From a virus, in the IMG/VR virus record IMGVR_UViG_3300029915_000003: DNA of 64,000 nt; one strand, given 5' to 3'. The notes beneath the pieces were generated by a model that did not search any database, had not been told where the DNA came from, and saw only the letters and a program-made list of their open reading frames with translations. How positions within the stretch are numbered: position 1 is the first letter of the stretch; every line of letters begins with the position of its first letter. This document shows, piece by piece, positions 14,260-59,821 of this stretch. Made by a program: the position numbers and the translations under genes.

Positions 14260-15195
14260 TTAAAAAATATCCTTACTGAATCCTACCTTGGAATCGGTTG
14301 ATTCTGACTTTGGTTTGTTCTTCAATGCTTTTATACGGGCTGCTACTTCGTGGAGTTCCCCACCCATACATTTAACAGAAACTACCAATTCCTTAATATG
14401 ACCAAGACTAAAACCTTTAGTTAAACCAAGCCACTCTTGGTATTGTTCTTCTGTTAATTCATCTGTTAGCTTATACTTTAGGTATTGTAACTTTACATCA
14501 TCATCTGGCAAGCCAAACTCAAGTCTCCTATCGAAACGGGAGGGACGGTCGGTGAGTCTACCATCTAACTTTTCTGGGTAATTTGTGGTAGCTATATTGA
14601 CGGTATTGGCAACAGAAAATTGACCATCCAAAATAGCCAAAAGGTCTGCTTCGTTACCCTTTTCAATCATTGCGTCTATATCTTCCAAAAGCACCAATAA
14701 GGGGGTATCTTTGTTAACCTTACGTATATCCTGTAGGGCGTTTTTAAGATACCAAGCGTTATCAGCCATGAGAACGATTCCTCCGTTGCGGAAGAACTCT
14801 CTGGCTATTAAAGCAGTTATACTACTTTTACCACAACCAGGGGGACCATGTAAAAGATACCCACGTTTATGACTAAATCCATATTTAAGGTAAACTTCTT
14901 TTTTGGTGAAAAACTCCTGTATTTCTTGTAATATAATATTTACAGGTCCCTTTTCGGATACTATTAAATCATCCGTAGAAATCTTTATACTACGTAAGGA
15001 AACATTTGATAACCCATCTCCATCTACCGCTACGTAGTAACCAGGAGGAAGGGTTTCTTGTATACCCAAGGTACTACCCATCTCCATCCATTTTTCCAAT
15101 GGACGCATTTTGGATTTATCCGGAACGGTTGACACCGATATGGTATCGTTGCCAAGGTAAATATACTTCGGTTCTTTTTTAGGGTTATCAGTCAT
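14260..15195 (-). CDS. AAA+ ATPase
   Basis: LLHGPPGCGKS, LLEDID, TTNYPE and RPSRFD. Confidence 0.9.
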   Translation of the reverse strand: MTDNPKKEPKYIYLGNDTISVSTVPDKSKMRPLEKWMEMGSTLGIQETLPPGYYVAVDGDGLSNVSLRSIKISTDDLIVSEKGPVNIILQEIQEFFTKKEVYLKYGFSHKRGYLLHGPPGCGKSSITALIAREFFRNGGIVLMADNAWYLKNALQDIRKVNKDTPLLVLLEDIDAMIEKGNEADLLAILDGQFSVANTVNIATTNYPEKLDGRLTDRPSRFDRRLEFGLPDDDVKLQYLKYKLTDELTEEQYQEWLGLTKGFSLGHIKELVVSVKCMGGELHEVAARIKALKNKPKSESTDSKVGFSKDIF

Positions 15196-22349: not shown

Positions 22350-23048
22350 ATGACCACCCTGACCCTCCCAGATTCAAAACTAGCTCTATTGAGCGAAGGT
22401 GAACTAAAGGAATACGAAGATTTCCAACAATCGTTCCAAATGCCGCTGGCATACGATGTTGCGGAGGGATTCTACAAGACATTCGAAAAAGGTCGTACCT
22501 GCGAAGAGATATGCTCTGCAAACCTAGGTGTGGGGCTTGGATCTGTACTTGACGCTAGGATTAGGTTTAATTGGGATGCCCGGCGTGGACGCTATGAGTC
22601 TATGTTGGAATCTACCATGAAGTCAAAGTCACTTCATTCTCAGGCTACTGCTCTGAGTTTCGTTTCAGATCTTATAAGTGTAACCCAAATGAAACACCAA
22701 GAAGCCATTAATAACTATATGGCCACCAAGGATCCTAAGTTCTTAGAAAATACAATACAAATAACCAATGTTAGGGATTACAAATGCCTCGTGGAAATTC
22801 AAATGTTACTTTCTGGCCCTCCCGGTGGCCCCATACCGGTTCCCGGCAATACAGTTGTATATAATCAACAATTAGTAAATATGCCGGGAAATGGTCAGCC
22901 TCCCATTACGGTAACAATTGAACCCGAGGACCACCGTAAGTTCTTAGCCGAAAAGGCAGAAGAAATCAGCAAAGCAGACGAGGAGAGGGCTCGTGTAGCG
23001 GCAGCTGTAAGGAAACACAAAAAGAATGCAGAATCAGAGAATGGCTAG
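22350..23048 (+). CDS. probable terminase small subunit
   Basis: Directly upstream of TerL; HTH-like segment followed by W-x-x-RR. Confidence 0.45.
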   Translation: MTTLTLPDSKLALLSEGELKEYEDFQQSFQMPLAYDVAEGFYKTFEKGRTCEEICSANLGVGLGSVLDARIRFNWDARRGRYESMLESTMKSKSLHSQATALSFVSDLISVTQMKHQEAINNYMATKDPKFLENTIQITNVRDYKCLVEIQMLLSGPPGGPIPVPGNTVVYNQQLVNMPGNGQPPITVTIEPEDHRKFLAEKAEEISKADEERARVAAAVRKHKKNAESENG

Positions 23049-24984
23049 TAAGAAACCAGTTGCAATAGCCCCCGCAGACCCTCTTAATCAATCCAAAGAG
23101 CGTCGGTATCTGTTTGTTCCTTGCCAATCCAAGAAGGAACTCAAAAACTGGATCCGAGTCTATTTGGGTTTAGATTATCCAGACGGAAGAGTAGATCCTT
23201 CTTCTAATTCAGATCCAATGAGTTTGCTTTGGGAATTATACAGTGCGGCTGTAGATCCAGACAGAGAATGGGAGCGTTTATTGGGGTATGCTTCACGATT
23301 CTCGTTTAAGACGCTATCCGCCTCTATTTTGGAGTTATTGTTTTTGATCCATCATGGTCGCAACATAGCCCATATGGCTGCCCTAGAAGCTCAAGCCCAA
23401 AACTCTCAAGAATATATCAAGAAGTTCCTTAAATTACCTATATTTAATGGATTCTTATTAAAAGATAACACTCGCGAGCTATTCTTTAGTCGTTACTTAG
23501 ATCCAGTAACAAACATGTCCTTTACCGAAAAGGAAGTACCTCTCCTACCAACAGAAATAAGGGATAGGCTACAAAATTTAGTAAATTACATTAAAATCAT
23601 TGTTGCCACTACGGCTTCAGCTAATGGTCTGCACACCAATCTGGTTGTATTGGACGAAGTAGATCTTATAACAAATAAAGAAGCCTACAATGAAGCAAAA
23701 CTCATACCAACCGAAGAAAAGGGTTTTAGACCTATAACTTTTTTGACTTCTACCCGTAAATACTCTATTGGTTTAGTCCAAAAAGAAATAGACGCAGCGG
23801 CTGAAACTGGTCTTGAGGTAAGACACTGGAATATTTTAGACGTTACCGAGCGTTGTACAGAGGCTAGACACCAACCAACCAAAACCAAACTACCTATATA
23901 TCGTTCTCAGAAACTACTCAAGGCTATTTCAGAAGAAGACTTTGAGCGATTGGATATAGCTTCCAAAGAAAAATACGTAAAAGATGAAGGGTATTGGGGG
24001 TGCTTGAATGAATGTAAGTTATTTGCTGCCTGCAAGGGGAACCTAGTCAAACAAACCAATGGTTCTTCTATATTGAAGTCTATTGGCCATATTATACAAC
24101 AGTTCTCTATTAATGACCCAGAGAGAGCTAACGCTCAATTGCTTTGCAATAAACCCTCCAAAGAGGGTATGATTTACCCAAATCTTGATGCAGAGATCCA
24201 TTTTAAATCAGCCCAGCAAATTGCCAATATGATTACGGGGGAGGAGTTCCCAGAAAAATACACCCAAAAAGAACTAATAGGATTGGCTCAATCTCTAGAT
24301 TGTAGATTCGTGTCTGGTATGGATCATGGCTATACCCATAACTTTGCGGTATGTACTGGATTCATATATGGTAATAAGTTATTTATGATTGATTCTTTTG
24401 CTGTTCCAGAACTAGAAATAAGCCAAAAGATCAATTTGTGCAACGATCGTATTAAACACCTAGACCCAACTATATATCCAGACCCAGCCGATCCGGGTTC
24501 CAGGAAGACTTTTATTAATCACGGATACAAATGTAAGGAATTCAAAAAAGGTCCCGGTTCTGTATTGGAGGGTATCAATGCAGTTAGAACCAAACTCATG
24601 CCCTCTTTAGGTAGGGAACCAGAGGTTTATTTCATTAAGGACAACGATGGTGTATTGAATTTATTTGGAGATCTATCTAAATACCATTGGATCGTAGGTG
24701 TAGACGAAAAACCAACAGATGTTCCAGATGACGATAACGATGACAGTGCTGATGCCTTTAGATATCTTATTATGAATGAGTTTCCACTCAAAAAGAAGAA
24801 CAGAAACGCTTCGGAAGGCTCCGAATTACCCTATCTTTACCAAGAAAAGCCAATTTCCGAGCCTACTGTTGAGAATTTCATCACAAATCGCCTAGAAGCA
24901 CTGGGAGTTTCACGTTCAAATGAAGATTTAGACCAAAATACCAACAAAAACGACTCCAAGTCTAGCATAAAGTGGAGATTTTAA
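23041..24984 (+). CDS. terminase large subunit
   Basis: ASRFSFKT Walker A variant, VVLDEVD, LTST, GMDHG and DDSADAFRY nuclease motifs. Confidence 0.88.
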   Translation: MASKKPVAIAPADPLNQSKERRYLFVPCQSKKELKNWIRVYLGLDYPDGRVDPSSNSDPMSLLWELYSAAVDPDREWERLLGYASRFSFKTLSASILELLFLIHHGRNIAHMAALEAQAQNSQEYIKKFLKLPIFNGFLLKDNTRELFFSRYLDPVTNMSFTEKEVPLLPTEIRDRLQNLVNYIKIIVATTASANGLHTNLVVLDEVDLITNKEAYNEAKLIPTEEKGFRPITFLTSTRKYSIGLVQKEIDAAAETGLEVRHWNILDVTERCTEARHQPTKTKLPIYRSQKLLKAISEEDFERLDIASKEKYVKDEGYWGCLNECKLFAACKGNLVKQTNGSSILKSIGHIIQQFSINDPERANAQLLCNKPSKEGMIYPNLDAEIHFKSAQQIANMITGEEFPEKYTQKELIGLAQSLDCRFVSGMDHGYTHNFAVCTGFIYGNKLFMIDSFAVPELEISQKINLCNDRIKHLDPTIYPDPADPGSRKTFINHGYKCKEFKKGPGSVLEGINAVRTKLMPSLGREPEVYFIKDNDGVLNLFGDLSKYHWIVGVDEKPTDVPDDDNDDSADAFRYLIMNEFPLKKKNRNASEGSELPYLYQEKPISEPTVENFITNRLEALGVSRSNEDLDQNTNKNDSKSSIKWRF

Positions 24985-47592: not shown

Positions 47593-47763
47593 TTGAAACC
47601 AACCAAATCCCCCTTGTCCCAAAATTCCCCATACCGTCGCCCCTGCAAACACCTTTTCGTTGCCCTTAAATTACAAATCGAATTATGGCTACAAACAAAC
47701 AATACTACCGTAGACGCTCTTTGTATGGTGAAAATGGAAGAACACCCGACCTTTCTTTTTTAG
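47593..47763 (+). CDS. YxRxCxH microprotein (CxxC degenerate)
   Basis: Manual translation: YRRPCKH; TTG start after TAAGGA. Confidence 0.45.
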   Translation: MKPTKSPLSQNSPYRRPCKHLFVALKLQIELWLQTNNTTVDALCMVKMEEHPTFLF

Positions 47764-47821
47764 ATATAAAATTTTTATAAAAAAAATTGGATTTAACTTA
47801 AAGGGACTACAGAGTAAATAC

Positions 47822-47920
47822 CCCTGGTAACGGTTCCTTGGTAATGGTTCCTTGGTAATGGTTCTTAACGTAACGGTTCCTTGGTAACGGTTCCTTGGTA
47901 ACGGTTCCTTGGTAACGGTT
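47822..47920. repeat. tandem repeat, 7 x about 14 bp (CCTTGGTAACGGTT)
   Basis: Read directly from the sequence; four of the seven units carry small variants. Confidence 0.9.
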
Positions 47921-48088
47921 TTATTAGGGGAAAATTATCTTAAAAATTCCAGGTGTAATACGTAAAGTCCCCCCAAACCCCAAAACCCCCTATCCTACCC
48001 AGGGGAACCTCCCCGGATAGTATCACCTATACCCCCCCCCGTGATTACCCTGTAAGGAATAACCCCTAAGACTAAGGTCCAGGATCCT

Positions 48089-48238
48089 TGGCAAGGATCT
48101 TGCTTGGTAAACCCGGTATGTTTATTGCATAGGGGAACCGGCATGGTTATTGCTAGTGGTAGCGTGGCAACGATATTGCAAGGATCCTAATGGTATGGTT
48201 ATTGCATAGGGATTTCGTTGCTTGCAAGCCTTATGCCA
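48089..48238. promoter_or_regulatory. phased array of sigma54 -24/-12 boxes
   Basis: YGGYA...TTGCW (GG-N10-GC) at 48089, 48114, 48139, 48165 and 48191 (+) and 48223-48238 (-). Confidence 0.75.
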
Positions 48239-48278
48239 TATCATTAGCAATGGTTTCCCGGCTATGGTCCCTTTGGAT

Positions 48279-48294
48279 TGTTCCACGTGGAACA
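48279..48294. promoter_or_regulatory. parS site
   Basis: TGTTCCACGTGGAACA inside a perfect 24-bp palindrome at 48275-48298. Confidence 0.8.
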
Positions 48295-48389
48295 ATCCTG
48301 CGCGTGCGCATGTGTGTGTATGTGGATGTGAGTGTATGCCCACATCTATATATGGTGTGTCGTACCCAAGACCTAGGTCTCAAGCTTTC

Positions 48390-48432
48390 TGGGGATAACC
48401 TGTTAGTAAGCTGTTAGTAAGCCTGTGGATAA
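48390..48432 (-). promoter_or_regulatory. DnaA-box cluster
   Basis: TGGGGATAA, TGTTAGTAA x2 and a perfect TGTGGATAA at 11-12 bp spacing. Confidence 0.65.
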
Positions 48433-49007
48433 CTTTTGGCACGGATCTTGTCTAGGCGTTTTCAGCGTCTGGACGGGATAGAGCCTAGGGATCCTCGGGC
48501 CGCGCTAGGAAGGGCGGATCCGCTCGTTTAATTGGCATTTAGCGCAAAGCGTCATTTAATCCGACTTTAGTCTTATTTTTGAGACCCTAAGCAAGATCCT
48601 TGCCAAAGAGTCTAAGCTATGTCGGCACGTTTGTTGCTACGCGCGCGGGCGCTTGATCCTTTGGTAAGGGATTAGAATTTCCCCTACGGGGAGAAACCGT
48701 TCGTTTGAGACGACGACGCATTGCGTCAAGAGTTTTACGTTAGGGGAATTCGAGGATTCCTCTAGCGGTCTAACCCCTTGAATTCCTTACTGTACAGTTT
48801 CACTACAGACTATGACAACCTTGTCCTAGTGACTTTTCTCAATGGTTTCATACAGTTAACCCTTTTTAGACCTTAGTCCTATGATCCAAGCGTCTCGATC
48901 CTGTCTGTTTTGCTGTACCATTTGGATCGTTTCCCCTACGGGGAGAGATCGTTCGATCCCATTGTAATCATTACACTTTTTTCCCCGCCCTGTTTTGGCG
49001 TAACGCT

Positions 49008-49023
49008 TGGCATGGCCGCTGCA
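49008..49023 (+). promoter_or_regulatory. candidate sigma54 promoter for the DUF932 operon
   Basis: TGGCATGGCCGCTGCA (GG-N10-GC), about 155 bp upstream of the ATG. Confidence 0.4.
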
Positions 49024-49178
49024 TAATAGGCCATTATCTCAGTTTGGTTCGCTCCTCTCTCTCTCCGAGGCGTTTCCCCTCTCCCCGCTGTTTCCCTCTA
49101 CAGAAAAAGGATTGACGGCCCCCTTCTTCTCTGGTACAACCTTCCCCGCTGTTTCCCTCTACGAAAAGGATCCTCCCC

Positions 49179-50390
49179 ATGATTTCCACCGATACCGATA
49201 TTGATTTCGCTGGCCTCACTCCCACCGAGACGCCGATCGCCTCGGATCCGGCCCCCATGGCCGATCTGGATCTCATTGAGTACGTTTCCCCTTCCGATCC
49301 GCACGTGATCATTCCCGAGATCGTCTCCACGCCTAACACCGTCTTGGATCACTCGGTCGGTTTCGGTCGCGTCGATGGCGATGAGCGCGCCGCGCTGGAC
49401 ACTGGAACCGTCCAGTTCGTGAGTTCGACCACCACGTCAACGGATCTGGCGGGAAACAGCACGGCCAGCGTTCAAACGATGGGTATGGTCGCAGGGGGCG
49501 CGCGCGAGATCCTGGCCAAGGCGGATCTGGCCTTTACCGTCGAAAGCGCGCCGATCTACACGTTGCGCGGAGGTCTTCCCGTCCAGATCGAAGGCAAAAA
49601 GGCGCTTGTCCGCACCGATACCGAGGAACCGGTCGGACTGGCAGGCGATGGGCGCGGGATCATTCAGTACGGGGAATGGGGCGAGGTGGTGGATATGCTG
49701 ATCGAACGCGCGAATGGCGAATTGTCGTTTGCTAACGCGATCAAACTGGACAACGGCGGGGCCATGGTTATGCAGATGGCCCGCAAGGGGAGCGTGGGGC
49801 GCTATGACGTTAAGGACATGATCACGTTGATCACGTCCCACAACGGTCGTTTCGCTGCCACGTTGGGATTTTCCCGCACCATGGTCGTTTGCGATAACAC
49901 GCTCGCGCATGCTCTCCACGAGGCAAAAAACGGGATCAAACTGAAGCACACCCGCCACGTTGCAGAGCGGTTCTCGCTCATTGCGGATGCACTCGAGATG
50001 TCGAAGGCGTATGCGGGCGCGCTGGATAATCACACGCTCCGGATGATGGGCCAAAAGATGACCGATGATCAGATGGTGCGGCTTGCGTCGAAACTGATCC
50101 CTTCCGATAGCGCCCGCGCGGAGGGTATGCGTGAAAAGCTGATCAGTGCGTGGACTACCGCGCCCGGAGCGGCTCCGGGGACGCGCTGGGGCGGATTGCA
50201 AGCGGTTACGTACTACACCTCCCACCTCATGGGATCGCGTGACACTGGACGCGCAGCGCAAGCCGCGAAATTTGAATCGCAATACATGGGAGCCGCGCAA
50301 AAGTTTTCGCAGAGCGGTTTTGACGTTCTGACGGACGATCGGGAATTCGAGGGACTGGCCAACGTGCAGATCGTCCGTCGCGCTCTGTAG
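49179..50390 (+). CDS. DUF932/DUF945 phage-plasmid family protein
   Basis: ALVRTDT, SHNG, VVCDNTL, KHT and GT.WG..QAVT motifs. Confidence 0.8.
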   Translation: MISTDTDIDFAGLTPTETPIASDPAPMADLDLIEYVSPSDPHVIIPEIVSTPNTVLDHSVGFGRVDGDERAALDTGTVQFVSSTTTSTDLAGNSTASVQTMGMVAGGAREILAKADLAFTVESAPIYTLRGGLPVQIEGKKALVRTDTEEPVGLAGDGRGIIQYGEWGEVVDMLIERANGELSFANAIKLDNGGAMVMQMARKGSVGRYDVKDMITLITSHNGRFAATLGFSRTMVVCDNTLAHALHEAKNGIKLKHTRHVAERFSLIADALEMSKAYAGALDNHTLRMMGQKMTDDQMVRLASKLIPSDSARAEGMREKLISAWTTAPGAAPGTRWGGLQAVTYYTSHLMGSRDTGRAAQAAKFESQYMGAAQKFSQSGFDVLTDDREFEGLANVQIVRRAL

Positions 50391-50587
50391 TCGGCCGTTG
50401 TTAGGGTACCGAGGGGAGGGATCTTCCTCGCGGTACCTTGTAGAGCGGCCCCATCCTCATTATGAGCGCAGTGTTTTCAACCTATACCAATTGGACCTTC
50501 CCTCTGTTTGCGTTGCGCCTTGGCCTGTTTCCCGCTCTTCTCTGATACCGTTTTCAGTTTCCGTTAACCGCCATAAAGGAAAAACCC

Positions 50588-50800
50588 ATGAAAACACCGA
50601 AAGTCTCGAACGTGGATCTCTTTCAGCTGCTCAATATGGCTTTTTGCGAAGGACAGGACGGAACGAAGTGGGAGGATCTGGCCTACACGTTCAGGTGCGC
50701 TCGCGATGATAAAGCTTTGGCCGACATGGGCGCTCGTTTCTTTGATGATGATTCCCTTGTCAACTTCTATGTACAGGTTAAGCTGGCTTTCGAGGAATAA
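50588..50800 (+). CDS. hypothetical protein
   Basis: AAGGA RBS. Confidence 0.6.
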   Translation: MKTPKVSNVDLFQLLNMAFCEGQDGTKWEDLAYTFRCARDDKALADMGARFFDDDSLVNFYVQVKLAFEE

Positions 50801-51156
50801 CCCATAAACAGGCGCTTAAACACGCTCGCGGCGGGATCCTCCCGATACTGCGCGTGTGTGTACAGGATATCGGCCGCATCCCATAACGGTTAAAGGCTGT
50901 TGGGGTAGGTTAGGAGGATCCTCTTTTAACCTACCTTGTAGAGCTTTCAACCTTCCCCTTTTAACCCATAAAGGAAAAACCCCATGCCTACCACCAACGG
51001 CCACATTAACAATCTGCGAGAGGCGACCGATCTGGATCGTGAAACCGCTACGTCCCACACTGCCTATTGGGATTGTTACGGATTGATTCCTCGTGCAAAA
51101 CCTACCTTGTAGAGCTTTCAACCTTCCTTCTTTTAACCCATAAAGGAGAATCCACA

Positions 51157-51591
51157 ATGGCAAACATTGGCGAGACAGACAGAAACGGATTCACGACAGT
51201 GCACGTAGAGGAGAGCGACGGCGTGTGGTATGATCTGGCGATCTCTCTGGACGAAGAGAGCGAGATTGATGGATCGTTCAGTGATAGCAGCGTTGCGGAC
51301 TATGTGCGCGAACAGATTGCAGCAGGAAACCCATGGGCATGGTGCGTTGCCCGCGTCACCGCGCGAGCAGGCGAGGGGCGTGGAGTCGATTACCTCGGAT
51401 CCTGCAGCTATAGGGATACTTCCGAGTTCGTTCAGCCCGGTGGTTATTTCGACGATATGAAGCGGACGGCCCGGGCGGATCTCGTCTCGGAACTCAAACT
51501 CTCGGTAGATGTTGGCAACGCAGCGCGCGCCACGCTTGCGAAACTGTCAGGCAACCCGGATCCCATCTACACGCTGCACGATAACGGTTAA
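51157..51591 (+). CDS. conserved phage early protein; paralog of 53875-54264
   Basis: WAWC..V.A...G...DYLG.CS...Y..DM. Confidence 0.65.
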   Translation: MANIGETDRNGFTTVHVEESDGVWYDLAISLDEESEIDGSFSDSSVADYVREQIAAGNPWAWCVARVTARAGEGRGVDYLGSCSYRDTSEFVQPGGYFDDMKRTARADLVSELKLSVDVGNAARATLAKLSGNPDPIYTLHDNG

Positions 51592-51675
51592 AGGCTGTTG
51601 GGGTAGGTTAGGAGGATCCTCTTTTAACCTACCTTGTAGAGCTTTCAACCTTTTACCCCATAAAGGAAAAACCCC

Positions 51676-52071
51676 ATGCCTACCACTACCAAAAGGATCA
51701 CACCAATGAAACCCAATTTTGAGATCATCGATCACGGCTGTGAACACGGCCAGTATTTCCAGGGGTGCGGCGTCTCTTTTACTCCCTTTTTGCATGTTGT
51801 CACCGGGGTAGCAGATACCCCGGCCGATGCACTCGAGGATGCTATCTCTAGTCTGTACGATCAGGCGGAACGGCCGGACGATGAAGCATTGACCGCGATC
51901 GAGGCGGAAGCGGCCGTCTTGATTGCTAACGCGCCTGCTACCGCACACAAGAATTGCCACGAAGATTGCCGTCAATATTTTGACGGTACTGATGAACAGT
52001 TTGAACGCTCGCACGAAATGTGCGAAATTGCCTATCGGGTATCAATCCGCTTTGGACGAAAGGAAGGCTAA
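51676..52071 (+). CDS. hypothetical protein
   Basis: RBS; DHG.E..QYFQGCGV motif. Confidence 0.6.
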   Translation: MPTTTKRITPMKPNFEIIDHGCEHGQYFQGCGVSFTPFLHVVTGVADTPADALEDAISSLYDQAERPDDEALTAIEAEAAVLIANAPATAHKNCHEDCRQYFDGTDEQFERSHEMCEIAYRVSIRFGRKEG

Positions 52072-52342
52072 CCCGTATGCGTATGCGGAACGGTAAAGCG
52101 CACCGGCTTTGCTCAAAAGGAAGCAATCCGACTCGAGGATGGTACAACCGCCATGTAGTCAAGCGGATCACAGCTAAGGCTATGCGGCGTGCCGCTAAGC
52201 TGCTCAATGAGGATTGTCCGCGCATGGTCGGGATCGGATGGTGCTTTTAAGTGTTTTAACCGCTGTTCGAGTAAGCCAGTGCTTTCTTGGCTTACTCTTT
52301 AGAGCGGTTAACCTGTTTTAACTCTTTCCCCCGAGGTATCCC

Positions 52343-52906
52343 ATGGCTCTCAACATCTTCGATTCATACAACAACAAGATCGTTTTGCCTAACGATATCA
52401 ACGGATTAGACGTTACCGTTAAACAGTGGAAAGGATCTAAACATCGGCAATACATCGAACTTAAGGATCTGGACGGTCGCGCCATCATCCTGCTAAGTCC
52501 TGAGAATGCGGGAGATACGGGATACATACACGCGGGGGGCGCTTCTTACCGCATCGCTGAAAACGGTTACAACGGCGATGCTGTTTGGCTTGGGCGCTGC
52601 GCTCCCCGCTATTTCGTATGCTTTGGGGAAGATCTAGAAGAAACGATCGAAAGCGCGGCGGAGTGGGCCGCTGACAACGCGCCCGGGTACCTAGTAGAGG
52701 ATTCCCTTATCCATACGCTCTACAAAGAAGCCTTCGCGGAAGGATTGAGCGAAAGAGCCGCGCAAGAGCAAGCGACACAAGATATGATCTACACAGAATC
52801 GGGGTATATTGAATCCGAGGATCTAGGTGTTTTCAAGCCTAGCGCGGAAGTTTTGTCCGCTGCTACCGTTATCGGTAAAATGCTGCGCGCAGAAAGCGAG
52901 GGTTAA
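52343..52906 (+). CDS. hypothetical acidic protein
   Basis: GAGG RBS; 187 aa. Confidence 0.6.
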   Translation: MALNIFDSYNNKIVLPNDINGLDVTVKQWKGSKHRQYIELKDLDGRAIILLSPENAGDTGYIHAGGASYRIAENGYNGDAVWLGRCAPRYFVCFGEDLEETIESAAEWAADNAPGYLVEDSLIHTLYKEAFAEGLSERAAQEQATQDMIYTESGYIESEDLGVFKPSAEVLSAATVIGKMLRAESEG

Positions 52907-52909
52907 ACA

Positions 52910-53365
52910 ATGGCAAACACTAGGGATTTTGTGGCGAAGTATGGGATCAAGGTGCAGGCCATCCGCACCGTTAGCAATCCGAATGCAACAAAAGGCGACT
53001 GGAACGACAAGGCGCGGCACTGGCTTTGTGTGTTGCATAGGGACTCGGGCCAAAGCGCCCCCGTGCAACGTCCTAACGGATCATGGGTTAAACAGCCGAT
53101 CGCCCATACGATGCCAGTCTATTTCTCGCAAGGATCAGGCCACAAGCGGGAGCCCACTGCTTGGGACGTGCTCGATTGCCTTGCATCGGACGTATCCGGA
53201 GCGGATCAAGACTTCGGGGGATGGGCCGGTGATCTCGGTTACGACAAGGATTCAAGAGAAGCGGAACGCACGTTCAATACTATCAAGCAACAGTCGGTTG
53301 CGTTGGGGGAGTTTTTGGGCCGACCGCTTTTGTCAGAGCTTTTGACCGATTATGAGGGTCTTTAA
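52910..53365 (+). CDS. conserved phage hypothetical protein
   Basis: DVLDCLASD...F..W..DLGYD.DSR motif. Confidence 0.65.
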   Translation: MANTRDFVAKYGIKVQAIRTVSNPNATKGDWNDKARHWLCVLHRDSGQSAPVQRPNGSWVKQPIAHTMPVYFSQGSGHKREPTAWDVLDCLASDVSGADQDFGGWAGDLGYDKDSREAERTFNTIKQQSVALGEFLGRPLLSELLTDYEGL

Positions 53366-53431
53366 AAGCTAAAAAGCTTAGTTTTTACCATTAGTTAAAC
53401 CCTCTTTACCCCTAAACCCGAGGCTTTCCCA

Positions 53432-53659
53432 ATGGAACCGCACGGAACGATCATAGAAGGCCGCTTAAAAGGCACTCGCTGCGCTTTGGTGCGGGTTGTC
53501 GATCCTCCCGCGCCTTGCTCTGGTAGTGAGACGGTGCGCCTAGAAATGGTGGTGGTGCGAGTGTTTGACTGTGCGGATCCTAGCTTTTCGCCTGAATGGC
53601 CGATCCGCATTCCTCGTGCGCATGTTTTGCTTGACTCCGATGCACCGAAAGAAGGCTAA
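53432..53659 (+). CDS. hypothetical protein
   Basis: Leader CCCTAAACCCGAGGCT shared with 54766. Confidence 0.5.
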   Translation: MEPHGTIIEGRLKGTRCALVRVVDPPAPCSGSETVRLEMVVVRVFDCADPSFSPEWPIRIPRAHVLLDSDAPKEG

Positions 53660-53874
53660 ACTATATGAAAGCATATGATATTGTCCGCCGATTCTACGGT
53701 TTAGACCCTATTGTTTCCGAGGATAAGCTGGTGGAAATGGTGGCAAACGACGGAAGAGGAGTGCAAGGAATGCGGGAGCGAAGAGCCTAACCATCAATGC
53801 GATAACTGCGCTTAAAATAGGTATGATTTAACACACATTAACCTACACTCTCTAACAAAAAGGTTATAGATTAT

Positions 53875-54264
53875 ATGGAACAATATCGCGAAACGGTTCA
53901 TACCGAGGTTGTTAACGGTATCACTTATACTGTTGATTTAACGTCGGAATGGGAAAGGATGAAAAATCATTTTCCAGAACAAGAAGACGCAGAAATGATC
54001 GCGCGGCTCGAAGAGCGTTGTGACGATGGGGACATGTGGGCGTGGTGCGACATAACCGTGACCGCATCATGCGAGGGATTCAAGGCTAGCGACAACCTCG
54101 GATGCTGCTCTTTTGATAACAAGGCTCAATTCTTAGCGGATGATTATTATAAAGATATGAAAGCGGGAGCTTTGTACGCTTTGCGTACCAACATTGAAAA
54201 GGTAGGAAAGGAACTGGCAGCGGCTCAAGTAGTGTTGGCAGCTAACGCACACTTGCCGGGTTAA
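53875..54264 (+). CDS. conserved phage early protein; paralog of 51157-51591
   Basis: WAWCDITVTA...DNLGCCS...YYKDM. Confidence 0.65.
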   Translation: MEQYRETVHTEVVNGITYTVDLTSEWERMKNHFPEQEDAEMIARLEERCDDGDMWAWCDITVTASCEGFKASDNLGCCSFDNKAQFLADDYYKDMKAGALYALRTNIEKVGKELAAAQVVLAANAHLPG

Positions 54265-54311
54265 TTGGTAGTATATAAACCCCAATTACAATCGTTGAAA
54301 GGAACTATAAA

Positions 54312-54671
54312 ATGTCTTGTTTTGTTTGCACTCCCGAGCATATCTCCGCTATCGTAACAGCTAACTACGATCCAGGCTTCCGGGGAATGCCCGTCGAAGA
54401 TGCTTTTCGCCTGCTCGAGGATGCTAATATCGCGGCCTATAACGCTCGCTATCGTGGAAATGACTCCTCGTCTCGGAACGTCTATCGGTACAAGCGAGAA
54501 GATCGTTTGCGTTCGCCTGTAGAAGTTATACGGTTGATCCACACGCTCGAGTATCAGTGCAATAGAACATCGGAATGGAGCGTTAGCAAAGCATATGAGT
54601 TTTTGCAAGAGGCTAAAGATGCACAGATCCGGCGTCTAGAGGGATATGAATCCGCCCCCTATAGCATTTAG
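54312..54671 (+). CDS. conserved phage hypothetical protein
   Basis: N...YNARY...LEYQC motif. Confidence 0.62.
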   Translation: MSCFVCTPEHISAIVTANYDPGFRGMPVEDAFRLLEDANIAAYNARYRGNDSSSRNVYRYKREDRLRSPVEVIRLIHTLEYQCNRTSEWSVSKAYEFLQEAKDAQIRRLEGYESAPYSI

Positions 54672-54765
54672 ATATATCCTCGATTTGATCCGCTCCCAAA
54701 AAGCTTAGCGAAACCAAGTAGTTATCTTTTCAACCGCTGTTAACCCTAAACCCGAGGCTACCCGT

Positions 54766-55257
54766 ATGAGCGACTCCGAAGCATTGGCAACCTTGAAGCG
54801 ATATCTGCGCGGCGCGAACCTGAACGGTGCGGACCTGTGCGACGCGAACCTGCGCAACGCGAACCTGCGCGACGCGAACCTGAGCGGTGCGGACCTGTGC
54901 GGTGCGAACCTGAGCGGTGCGAACCTGCGCGACGCGAACCTGAGCGACGCGGACCTGAGCGGTGCGAACCTGTGCGACGCGGACCTGAGCGGTGCGGACC
55001 TGAGCGGTGCGAACCTGAGCGGTGCGAACCTGAGCGACGCGAACCTGTGCGGTGCGGACCTGAGCGGTGCGGCCCTGTGCGGCGCGGACCTGAGCAACGC
55101 GGCGGACCTGAGCATCGCGGACCTGAGCGGTGCGAACCTGAGCGGTGCGGACCTGAGCGACGCGCACCTGAGCGGTGCGGCCCTGCGCAACGCGGACCTG
55201 AGCGGCGCGTATTTTTACAACCACGGAACTCTCTACAAGGTCGCCTCGGCGATCTAA
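54766..55257 (+). CDS. pentapeptide repeat protein
   Basis: A(D/N)LxG/D repeats. Confidence 0.85.
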
Positions 55258-55533
55258 AAATCCGCCCGTCTAAGAGAAAGGTCTAAACCCATGAAAACTG
55301 ATAAAAGCTCGAAATGCACCTACTGCGCGATGGGTTTTAAGGCGAATGAATACGGAAGGCACCCGGAAAGCCACGATCCAGAGCAGCGGCTTTGCCCTAA
55401 GTTCAGGGCAGAACAGGAACAACGCGACGCGGACGCTTTCGCTTCTCGCAACTAGAGCTTGACTTGCAAAAGGATCCGGGTCAAATAGGCTTTAACGCTC
55501 TTAAAGGCGCTTTCTCTAACAAGGGGTAAACAA

Positions 55534-56055
55534 ATGGGATACATGTCCTTCCGAAACGCTACCAAGCAAGACATTATCTCTAAGATTTTGGGGGATAGTG
55601 GTTACACCATTTATGATCATTGCCTTAAGGGTAATGTGCTTTGGACTGTCCAGTCGCAAGCGTTGGTTTACGCACCGCGTTACATCGGTTGTTACATACT
55701 GGAAAGCCGCGAAGATGGATATGCTTATAAGGCTTTGAGCGAAGGTGATTACCCTTACTATTTCGATTGTCCCACATCCTTCTTCAAACAGGCCCCTACC
55801 CCCTATAACGAAAATGCGGTCAAGTGGCGCGCACGTTGCGAGTCCCTCCGGCAAGAGCTGAAGCGTGTTAAGGGGTCGCTGGCTATTGGCAATGTCGTTC
55901 CGTTGATCTTCGGATGCACGGTGGAGGGTTCCCCCGTTGCGTCTGTGCGAGTCGTTTCCGTTCGCCCTTTGATGGTTGAACGGCTGGACGTTCCAGGCGT
56001 GTTCAAGCTGCCCCGTAAGTTTATCGATACCAATGTCAATCGGACCGCTCTTTAA
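55534..56055 (+). CDS. DUF6927-like protein
   Basis: YAYK..SE...PYYFDCP...WR.RC. Confidence 0.55.
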   Translation: MGYMSFRNATKQDIISKILGDSGYTIYDHCLKGNVLWTVQSQALVYAPRYIGCYILESREDGYAYKALSEGDYPYYFDCPTSFFKQAPTPYNENAVKWRARCESLRQELKRVKGSLAIGNVVPLIFGCTVEGSPVASVRVVSVRPLMVERLDVPGVFKLPRKFIDTNVNRTAL

Positions 56056-57738: not shown

Positions 57739-58464
57739 TTGGACTCTACTCTGTTTAAGCCTATCCATAAGCTTCGCAACACTTACCGACCCATTGCTAA
57801 GGAACTAGAAAAGGATATCATCCTTAAGGCTCAAGCAGGGGACAAGAAGTCTCGTGATTTACTGGTAAACAGTAATATGGGACTGGTCATTAAGGAAGCC
57901 CGCAAACAGGCTGGTAGGAAACTGGATATTAATGATTTGGTACAGGTTGGAGCAATGGCCCTATTGGAAACCATTGATAAGTTTGATACCAGTAAGGATT
58001 TGAAGTTTATTACCTACGCCAAGTGGCTGGTGGTAAGCCGTATGCAACGATACCGGGCGGCTCAAAGCGGTATTGTTCATTACGATACCGATAAAACCCG
58101 GCAAGAAGGATATGGGGCTAAAAGGTCGGATCAAAGCCTAAATGAGATTTATTCCAATAGCAAAAAGAATGACATTGAAGGTGATGTGGAGTACCAAGAC
58201 CTTTTAGTGTGTGATGAACCCACCCCAGAAGATAACGCTATTCGCTCTCAAACAAATGGAGAGGTAGCCCTATTTATGGATAATCTTCAAAAGACCCTTA
58301 CCCCTATGGAGAAAGAGTTTATTCCCCGTATTGGTGAAAAAGAGAAGAACAGGGTTCCGCTTCATGAAATCGGTAAAAAGTATGGGTATTGCCGGGAATC
58401 GGTACGACAAAAAGAGGCTAAACTGGTAGCTTGTTTGGCAAATGACCTTAAGGAATACGCATAA
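57739..58464 (+). CDS. sigma70-family sigma factor (RpoH/SigF-like size)
   Basis: LVNSNMGLV, DLVQVG..AL...DKFD...KFITYAKW and LHEIG..YG..RESVRQ.E. Confidence 0.88.
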   Translation: MDSTLFKPIHKLRNTYRPIAKELEKDIILKAQAGDKKSRDLLVNSNMGLVIKEARKQAGRKLDINDLVQVGAMALLETIDKFDTSKDLKFITYAKWLVVSRMQRYRAAQSGIVHYDTDKTRQEGYGAKRSDQSLNEIYSNSKKNDIEGDVEYQDLLVCDEPTPEDNAIRSQTNGEVALFMDNLQKTLTPMEKEFIPRIGEKEKNRVPLHEIGKKYGYCRESVRQKEAKLVACLANDLKEYA

Positions 58465-58602: not shown

Positions 58603-58968
58603 ATGGACATTTTGATTTTGGATGATGAAGATGTTAGACACTCTGAGTTCGCCAAGCGTTTTCGGGAGCATAACGTATTCCATACCAAGGATCCTTGGGA
58701 AGCTGTTTGCTGGATGAAGGAACGTAAGTTCGATTTGGTTTCTTTAGACCATGACCTTAACTGGTTCGAGTTTACACCCTACAAGCAGGAGATCACTGGT
58801 ACTGAGGTTGCACGTGCGATGCTTGCCCTTCCTGGCGAAAATAGGCCCGGTGAAATTCATATCCACAGTTGGAATCCAGATGGAGCGCGGCGGATGTTTC
58901 TGATTTTGAAAGAGGCCGGGTTTGTTCATATCATCCGCAACCCTTTTACTGCAATTAAATCCATTTAG
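58603..58968 (+). CDS. cyclic-phosphate-processing receiver-like (cREC) domain protein
   Basis: ILDD, SLDHDL, TG..V and HSWNP.GA..M; TTGACA-N17-TACATT promoter. Confidence 0.72.
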   Translation: MDILILDDEDVRHSEFAKRFREHNVFHTKDPWEAVCWMKERKFDLVSLDHDLNWFEFTPYKQEITGTEVARAMLALPGENRPGEIHIHSWNPDGARRMFLILKEAGFVHIIRNPFTAIKSI

Positions 58969-58990
58969 CCCCATAAAAAGGACAATTCCC

Positions 58991-59821
58991 ATGAAAACCT
59001 ACACGCAAAAAGAACTTTCCGAAACCCTCCGTTTGCATAAGCTTTGGTTAGAAGGTAAGGCTGGAGGTGTACTGGCCAATCTGTACGGGGCTATTCTGTC
59101 CGGGGCCAATCTGTCCGAGGCTATTCTGTCCGGGGCCGAACTGATCAGGGCCAAATTGACCGGGGCCAATCTGTCCGGGGCCGAACTGATCAGGGCCAAT
59201 CTGTCCGGGGCCGAACTGATCAGGGCCAATCTGACCGGGGCCAAATTGACCGGGGCCAATCTGTCCGGGGCCAATCTGTCCGGGGCCAATCTGTCCGGGG
59301 CCGATCTGTACGGGGCCACACTGACCTGGGCCACACTGACCTGGGCCAAATTGACCGGGGCCAATCTGTCCGGGGCTAATCTACGCGGGGTCAATCTGTC
59401 CGGGGCCAATCTGTCCGAGGCCAATCTGTCCGGGGCTAATCTGTCCGGGGTCAATCTGTCCGGGGCCAATCTACGCGGGGCCAAAAACTTTCCCCCGAGG
59501 GAGATAGCCAAGCGTCAAATTGTTCCCCCCGTAGGTGAATTTATCGGTTACAAGAAGGTTTACAATAGAACTCGGGGGGCAGTCGTAATTGGTTTGCGAA
59601 TTCCAGCCGGAGCCAAGCGTGTTGGGGGCGTAATTGGTCGAAAGTGTCGAGCGTCTTGCGTTGTCGCTCTTGGAAGTGGCGTAAGCAATTTCGATGGAAG
59701 CTTCAAGTATACCAAGGGGAAGAAGGCTAAACCCAAGAAGCCTTTTAATCCAGATCCCTTGGTGGAATGCACTAGCGGGATCCACTTCTTTTTGACACCA
59801 GAAGAAGCCGTAGACTATTAG
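58991..59821 (+). CDS. pentapeptide repeat protein with C-terminal DUF5758-like domain
   Basis: Repeats followed by FIGYKK, RKCRA and C..GIHFF...EEA..Y. Confidence 0.85.
   Translation: MKTYTQKELSETLRLHKLWLEGKAGGVLANLYGAILSGANLSEAILSGAELIRAKLTGANLSGAELIRANLSGAELIRANLTGAKLTGANLSGANLSGANLSGADLYGATLTWATLTWAKLTGANLSGANLRGVNLSGANLSEANLSGANLSGVNLSGANLRGAKNFPPREIAKRQIVPPVGEFIGYKKVYNRTRGAVVIGLRIPAGAKRVGGVIGRKCRASCVVALGSGVSNFDGSFKYTKGKKAKPKKPFNPDPLVECTSGIHFFLTPEEAVDY

Follow-up and report, generated by a model that had tools for sequence, protein, structure and literature searches.

Clustered sigma-54-type boxes in a gene-free block of an Mx1-like phage belong to a virus-enriched class of arrays and may dock host sigma-54

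Why should a phage carry a head-to-tail series of sigma-54-type boxes in DNA that encodes no protein, most of them with no gene downstream? The question is raised by a locus in a window of 64 kb, by which we mean the whole stretch of viral DNA that was analysed (64,000 nucleotides of the IMG/VR record IMGVR_UViG_3300029915_000003). The window is part of an Mx1-like myovirus with a genome of about 165 kb, which has been assembled repeatedly from metagenomes. It encodes terminase, portal, capsid protein, ribonucleotide reductase, a GroEL-like chaperonin, helicases and four tRNAs. The capsid protein shares 55% identity with that of Mx1, a Myxococcus phage of 169.6 kb and the one close relative in culture, and this identity, the sole clue to the host, suggests a Myxococcus-type bacterium. 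The -24/-12 consensus of sigma-54 promoters, said to have been given by Barrios et al. in 1999, is YTGGCACGR-N3-TTGCW. By the core of this consensus (TGGCAYGR..TTGCW) the boxes are taken here to be sigma-54-type.

The sequence-only reading of the locus had listed ten boxes between 48089 and 49023, and each of them was found at its coordinate and on its strand. Five co-oriented boxes (48089-48206, plus strand) start at 48089, 48114, 48139, 48165 and 48191, and the start-to-start spacing of 25, 25, 26 and 26 bp claimed for them was reproduced. They are faced by an inverted box, TGGCATAAGGCTTGCA (48223-48238, minus strand), which is an exact match. Further to the right lie TGGCACGGATCTTGTC (48437-48452, plus strand), a near match with a perfect -24 half in which the GC of the -12 half is lost (TTGTC); an inverted copy of the 48089 box (48590-48605, minus strand), which is an exact match and sits in an arm of an inverted repeat; CGGCACGTTTGTTGCT (48623-48638, plus strand), an exact match that was also found by the weighted scan; and TGGCATGGCCGCTGCA (49008-49023, plus strand), a near match that keeps GG-N10-GC and reads CTGCA. 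The GG and GC dinucleotides stand ten bases apart in the eight exact boxes and in the 49008 box, while the 48437 box has no GC. It was likewise confirmed that the boxes lie on both strands, in non-coding DNA and mostly without a downstream gene, and that they differ internally and in their spacers while the motif is kept; every spacer and linker position varies among the units. The 49008 box is the only one in a plausible promoter position, 155 nt before the start of the DUF932 gene, whereas no gene lies downstream of the five-box array in the direction of its boxes, and two boxes face the other way.

Within the window the boxes are strongly concentrated. Exact matches to YGGYA-N6-TTGCW number 8 within 550 bp and only 3 in the remaining 63 kb, a density about 23-fold above that of the rest of the window. 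When the enrichment was checked by a weighted consensus scan, 9 hits were obtained in 48000-49100 versus 22 in the other 62.9 kb, and 2000 first-order Markov simulations of the region yielded a mean of 0.48 and a maximum of 4, versus the 9 observed. The earlier conclusion that sigma-54-type sites are clustered beyond chance in non-coding DNA has held; the sponge, or titration of sigma-54, and the coating of first-injected DNA that had been proposed with it are hypotheses.

The array shares a 1.8-kb gene-free block with a 14-bp tandem repeat, a perfect parS palindrome and DnaA boxes. The untranslated DNA at 47781-49178 lies between an array of Cys/His microprotein genes (about 40% GC) and a GC-richer block of small genes on the plus strand. 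No credible ORF and no Rfam match could be detected in 47781-49178, sigma-70 promoter-like or terminator-like sites are not in excess there, and the stretch without ORF or Rfam match extends for 973 nt after the five-box array. The GC content rises from 0.39 to 0.59 across the block, being about 40% on the left and 52-59% on the right. The non-coding block was recovered in 10 independent metagenome contigs at 98.7-100% identity; the strains differ by an indel of one copy of the 14-bp repeat, by a few substitutions and, in one contig, by a gap with an N-run, and none of the differences falls inside a box. Since 10 independent contigs carry the block and the aligned differences spare the boxes, it is no assembly artefact. 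The same recurrence indicates that the junction between 40% and 52-59% GC is real and not a chimera.

Several other repeats are found in and around the block. An A/T tract occupies 47757-47800 and is followed by the tandem repeat (47825-47920, plus strand, 6.8 copies of the unit TGGTAACGGTTCCT, TRF score 148), the copy number of which varies among strains, 4 of the 10 contigs showing a 14-bp indel. The repeat unit contains TTGGTAAC, which is like a lone -24 half-site, and the same octamer, as GTTACCAA, is also present beside the array of another contig, L163 (420-450 and 600-620); either occurrence is perhaps a coincidence. An imperfect inverted repeat of about 40 nt, with arms at 48067-48105 and 48563-48609 that both carry the same box, brackets the array, the parS palindrome and the DnaA boxes; its matches are I1, 21 nt at 95%, and I6, 13 nt at 92%, both 483 nt apart. 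A repeat with a CCCCTACGGGG hairpin is present on the plus strand in two copies (D6, 92%), at 48678-48703 and at 48930-48955. GATC is about 4-fold in excess in 48000-49400 (22 observed versus 5.5 expected) and in excess also in 49179-56000 (74 versus 26), with a slight depletion in 1-47000 (130 versus 170). It occurs in the spacer of several window boxes (GGATCTTGC), and the array boxes of an unrelated phage record of 91.6 kb, G016, contain GATC as well (TGGCACGGATCTTGCT; four boxes, 28-bp period).

The first gene after the block, with which the GC-rich, GATC-dense block of small genes starts, encodes a DUF932 protein (49179-50390, plus strand; Pfam PF06067, E 1e-24). An identical protein sequence recurs on 24 metagenome contigs, the longest of 162.6 kb, and 10 of these contigs include the non-coding block. 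A search for homologues returned near-identical strains and two distant homologues only, and the 116-kb contig of one of the latter has no boxes; in the literature on DUF932 in plasmid leading regions nothing relevant was found. Farther right in the GC-rich block are a sigma-70-family factor gene (57739-58464) and several pentapeptide-repeat/DUF5758 genes (58922-59821 and neighbours). On the minus strand of the left part of the window, a gene for a 311-aa AAA ATPase (14260-15195; PF00004, E 4e-16) adjoins an ORF-free strand-switch region at 15.3-15.8 kb.

Among the boxes there are also candidate sites for ParB and DnaA, two further proteins of the host. An inverted-repeat search (I8) detected a perfect 16-bp palindrome of chromosomal parS type, TGTTCCACGTGGAACA, at 48279-48294, 41 bp past the last array box. 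Chromosomal parS is a 16-bp palindrome of the TGTTNCACGTGAAACA type, and on that basis the palindrome is called a putative ParB site. It is unique among the 123 array loci that were checked and absent from Mx1 and four IMG/VR relatives, and no parA or parB was seen among the window ORFs screened. The second kind of site is a DnaA-box cluster on the minus strand (48390-48432), in which TGGGGATAA at 48390 has one mismatch and TGTGGATAA at 48424 has none; the cluster also includes two weak copies of an 11-bp repeat.

Equivalent arrays, which the sequence-only reading had proposed to look for in related phages, were not found there: Mx1 has 4 scattered matches in 170 kb and no array, and the four IMG/VR relatives (capsid identity 52-60%) have 0-1 box matches each and no array. 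Since Mx1 and four other relatives do without it, the array is not essential to the Mx1-like phage type. Neither the block nor an 11-box array had a BLAST match among 50,697 cultured-phage records, and the exact 32-mer that was looked up is absent from IMG/VR. Many unrelated phages, on the other hand, do carry arrays. With a three-box pattern (TTGCW, a 9-10-nt gap, a full box, a second gap of 9-10 nt and another full box, equivalent to a 25-26 bp period) 37 stretches of IMG/VR were matched, containing arrays of 3-14 boxes, while the reversed three-box motif, used as a control, gave 0 matches in IMG/VR. In 596 Gb of prokaryote genomes the same pattern matched only 12 times. These matches are mostly weak, being exact tandem repeats or two-box matches in which G at -20 is rare; several lie on MAG contigs that are possibly phage, and none of the 12 has coding similarity to the window. 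A wider search of IMG/VR, with gaps of 0-30 nt, gave at least 120 matches; after removal of near-identical contigs the arrays represent at least 88 independent lineages. Neighbouring boxes in the matches listed, whose spacing could range from 16 to 46 bp, most often lie 26-28 bp apart (21, 36 and 35 cases), and a broad second maximum is seen at 43-47 bp.

The agreement of the class boxes with the sigma-54 consensus extends to positions beyond those fixed by the search. In a logo of 280 distinct units from 94 loci, cited here for positions that the search pattern left free or set loosely, T is present at -27 in 65% and at -26 in 98%, C at -23 in 92%, C or T at -21 in 98%, G at -20 in 75% and A or G at -19 in 80% of the units, and the linker is unconserved. 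The bipartite, asymmetric motif is the same as in bacterial sigma-54 promoters, including these unimposed flanking preferences. The window falls within the class, having at least three co-oriented boxes at about 25-28 bp with variable linkers in an ORF-free block, and its boxes are weaker than the class norm: T at -26 and C at -23 are each found in 3 of the 5 array boxes, A at -21, which makes up 1.4% in the class, in 2 of the 5, and CGG or GGT occurs in three window boxes.

Chance clustering, or a neutral tandem repeat that has no function and was amplified recently, is in our opinion extremely improbable. The arrays of L027, L031 and L047 are built of identical units and have for that reason probably been amplified recently, which favours a neutral repeat. 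The units of the window, however, differ at every spacer and linker position while the motif is kept, and this explanation is opposed by the simulations as well as by the reversed-motif control and the logo of the class. A reading of the boxes as sigma-70 promoters, with TTGCA as the -35 element, was also rejected: the 25-26-bp period leaves a spacer of 14-15 nt, and the would-be -10 element is unconserved.

The phages that carry arrays span 38-65% GC and 44-92 kb and possess several unrelated terminase types. Of 87 independent arrays, 72 lie outside any frame of at least 150 codons, and A/T tracts are abundant in the array flanks across the class. In nine mostly complete genomes (G011, G015, G016, G018, G022, G025, G029, G031 and G038) the boxes are restricted to one region of 0.1-3 kb per genome, and the window, with 8 of its 11 exact boxes within 550 bp of 64 kb, shows the same restriction. 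In the 57-kb genome G029 (L040/L047) the direct terminal repeats given by IMG/VR are the box array itself, the two ends consisting of identical 26-bp units; the assembly may have broken in the array and so produced the call as an artefact.

The boxes have no preferred direction. Relative to the next gene their orientation is nearly random (15 co-directional, 16 convergent), and relative to terL it is the same in 13, opposite in 13 and mixed in 3 of 29 lineages. T7-like inward promoters that pull the DNA into the cell were rejected on the latter ratio. The position of the arrays is more regular than their direction. In every locus that includes terL the array stands upstream of that gene, the distance being usually 1-1.7 kb; this was so in 20 of 20 loci of a first sample and in 48 of 48 loci of a second one (29 independent lineages, among the matches listed). 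Since terL is nearby in only 6 of 12 well-flanked lineages, the placement is a strong preference and not a rule, and in the window terL (23026-24984) is 23 kb away from the array, which does not lie just upstream of it. With gene calls in the metagenome loci that are crude (longest ORFs), terL and portal were the only families found to recur beside arrays, and the small genes that separate array from terL show no relation among lineages. In L163 a consensus sigma-70 promoter at 883-915 precedes a small protein with AT-hook-like GRP motifs, then a cell-wall hydrolase-like gene and terL; the gene for this small protein comes first after the array in a large set of related contigs (L019, L020, L039, L043, L046 and cluster 1). 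Taken as a class, the arrays are enriched in viruses, neutral in orientation and confined to one region per genome, and no activator gene was found with them in the records described below.

Could the boxes be working promoters? Arranged in tandem and fired by an enhancer-binding protein of the host or by a phage activator that has escaped recognition, they might be kept tightly off and then strongly transcribe the DUF932-led block, or a non-coding RNA from 48.2-49.2 kb. We regard this as possible though rather doubtful. The boxes fit the promoter consensus, and the five-box array points to the plus-strand block that starts at 49179, as do the two boxes at 48623 and 49008. Single boxes in G022 and G025 look promoter-like, being scattered among small genes over about 2 kb, and in 13 of the 29 lineages the boxes aim at terL, where late promoters are usually located. 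There is also a precedent, since PMC10914365 describes, citing Ceyssens et al. 2008, a sigma-54-dependent promoter and transcription in the Pseudomonas phage YuA. Like the array phages YuA uses the sigma-54 of its host, but it does so from a single promoter before genes, and no box array was found anywhere in its 58.7 kb.

No activator gene could be detected that would fire such promoters. The domains Sigma54_activat (PF00158) and Sigma54_DBD were found in none of 35 array-bearing records, 6 of which are at least 90% complete; the GAFTGA, ELFGH and RpoN-box motifs are absent from all six frames of the 64-kb window, out of a genome of about 165 kb; and the sole AAA protein found in the window belongs to the general family PF00004 and not to PF00158. 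The geometry is also unfavourable. A period of 25-26 bp would put each start site inside the next box, and judged by the footprint sizes the sites may be too tightly packed for independent promoters. The window array is followed by gene-free DNA, convergent or interleaved boxes exist (48191 plus against 48223 minus; plus and minus boxes interleaved at about 21 bp in L040), and about half of the arrays aim at the 3' end of a convergent gene, as in L043, where a Pfam-confirmed GP88 gene converges with the array and is entered by it at its 3' end. In L163 the packaging operon has a consensus sigma-70 promoter of its own (TTGACT-17-TATAAT), and the antisense array about 300 bp upstream is thus not the promoter of that operon. 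Moreover, one region per genome does not make a regulon. Bacterial sigma-54 promoters differ from the phage arrays in these respects, since the latter consist of up to 14 copies placed head to tail at 25-28 bp on either strand, mostly without a downstream gene, without an activator gene in the records searched and in one region per genome, and such arrays are nearly absent from 596 Gb of prokaryote genomes.

The boxes may instead be read by a protein other than sigma-54, encoded by the phage or not, and their likeness to sigma-54 sites would then be a coincidence. The repeats could in that case be origin iterons, terminase (pac/cos) repeats, or terminus or injection-stop repeats of the T5 iss type. 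We consider this unlikely, even though the block has much of the look of an origin or terminus, with its tandem repeat, A/T tract, DnaA boxes, palindromes, inverted-repeat bracket and dense GATC. There is a single such region per genome, and the region just upstream of the terminase genes, where the arrays are found when terL is near, is the usual and classic site of cos, pac and genome ends. A parallel is the iss of phage T5, which lies in the left terminal repeat beside early genes, is a large untranslated region of direct and inverted repeats, palindromes and host DnaA boxes, and has been proposed to act through a host protein bound to the entering DNA (10.1101/866236). The window likewise has untranslated repeats, palindromes and DnaA boxes, with an inverted-repeat bracket; T5 iss contains eight DnaA boxes, versus one perfect box and one with a single mismatch in the window, and the description of iss lists no sigma-54 boxes or parS, both of which are present here (10.1101/866236).

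What speaks against a reader of this kind is the motif itself, which is asymmetric and identical in very different phages and matches sigma-54 at six positions that were not forced. Besides terL and portal no family recurs near the arrays, the small genes between array and terL being unrelated, and the window array is 23 kb from its terL. The in-phase spacing of iterons is typically about 22 bp, as opposed to the 26-28-bp period of the arrays. Of the features of an iteron origin, DnaA boxes and an A/T tract are seen in the window and no initiator gene is adjacent, while its repeats are conserved at the sigma-54 positions only and are spaced by 25-26 bp.

A related explanation keeps sigma-54 as the reader and makes the locus a replication origin, in which closed sigma-54 complexes, melted at -12, or sigma-54 transcription would help the opening, and the DnaA boxes and the A/T tract would supply the initiation. 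In the 500 bp around arrays, perfect DnaA boxes indeed reach 18 times their background density (21 in 127 kb versus 9 in 979 kb), often clustered and embedded among the boxes as in the window; the array flanks are rich in A/T tracts, there is one region per genome, and transcription-activated origins are known from lambda, T7 and T4. Such perfect boxes were however found near the arrays of only 7 of the 88 lineages, another candidate origin had previously been placed at 15.3-15.8 kb of the window, beside a helicase, and we know of no case of sigma-54 acting at a replication origin. For these reasons this explanation appears quite improbable. In unrelated phage contigs clusters of 2-5 perfect DnaA boxes with a regular spacing of 11, 22 or 39 bp are seen beside or inside arrays (L117 399-529; L123 2469-2538; L050 1928-1996; L163 505-524).

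The reading that we favour, tentatively and with somewhat less than even confidence, is that the boxes form a docking array for host sigma-54 or its RNA polymerase within a hub of host-factor sites, and are not ordinary promoters. The boxes exist, are non-random and fit the sigma-54 consensus; that sigma-54 reads them, that their function is binding and not transcription, and that the phage benefits is what we infer from the comparisons above. Host RpoN, presuming that the host has rpoN, would occupy the close-packed boxes, most probably as holoenzyme in an inactive closed complex. According to PMC4591121, the sigma-54 closed complex forms without an activator, and the holoenzyme binds DNA in a transcriptionally inactive state, with many non-promoter sites in E. 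coli. The array would be one module of the hub, together with DnaA boxes and, here, parS, inside the inverted-repeat bracket, and as soon as the phage DNA is in the cell, DNA-binding proteins that the host already contains would be loaded onto it at the hub, no phage protein being needed. The outcome might be that sigma-54 is captured or titrated, that a stable nucleoprotein block (an anchor, roadblock or insulator) forms at a module boundary, or both; help for an origin, or a role on the entering DNA like that of the T5 iss DnaA boxes, are other candidate benefits.

Further considerations favour the docking array. Since the asymmetric motif stays constant among carriers that differ widely in GC content and genome length, a conserved host factor explains it better than a phage protein, which would evolve too fast to keep it, and the unrelated terminase types, together with the lack of a recurring neighbour family besides terminase and portal, lead to the same preference. 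Furthermore, binding fits better than a conventional promoter because no activator gene was found in the records searched, the boxes keep to one region and their direction is independent of genes. The enrichment of perfect DnaA boxes beside arrays, in 7 independent lineages, also speaks for a hub of host-factor sites. On the other side, the docking reading is weakened by the window boxes, which are below the class norm, and by the single boxes of G022 and G025, which look like real promoters. A pure sponge would leave the placement upstream of terL unexplained, and a local, architectural role is therefore indicated.

Among known systems the E. coli datA locus offers a partial analogy. There a cluster of DnaA boxes on the chromosome serves, together with IHF, to titrate DnaA or to inactivate it. 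Like the array it is a non-coding cluster of high-affinity sites that binds a host factor, as is predicted for the array, and does not express a gene; it differs in being chromosomal, specific for DnaA and assisted by IHF. To our knowledge no equivalent of datA exists for a sigma factor. The early promoters A1-A3 of T7 are sigma-70 promoters about 125 bp apart, which point inward at the entering end and are transcribed. They resemble the arrays in that several sites for host polymerase are packed near a genome end or module boundary, but the arrays have no consistent direction. In the literature we found no description of phage sigma-54 arrays, of sigma-54 titration or of decoys.

Alone among bacterial sigma factors, sigma-54 keeps polymerase parked on DNA without firing. 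Should phages make use of this property by means of dense arrays of sites, the host would be manipulated by DNA alone, in a manner invisible to gene-based annotation. The array class is common (at least 120 IMG/VR matches), virus-specific and positionally constrained, and because it is placed before packaging genes and beside DnaA boxes as well, it probably reflects a general and undescribed step of infection. More doubtful is the wider proposal that many phage lineages possess a compact takeover hub free of phage protein, with consensus sites for universally conserved host DNA-binding proteins, which would capture sigma-54 polymerase, DnaA and, here, ParB on the phage DNA. The window, with sigma-54 boxes, a perfect parS and DnaA boxes in one bracket, illustrates such a multi-factor hub clearly and would be a fragment well suited to binding assays, and arrays of this kind would be compact natural parts for sigma-54 titration in synthetic biology. 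If the proposal is true, the replicating genome would titrate sigma-54 and shut off the sigma-54-dependent responses of the host, or hold, at the boundary that precedes the packaging genes, a nucleoprotein structure that serves as anchor or roadblock, or do both, and with the arrays a natural DNA sponge for a sigma factor would be seen for the first time.
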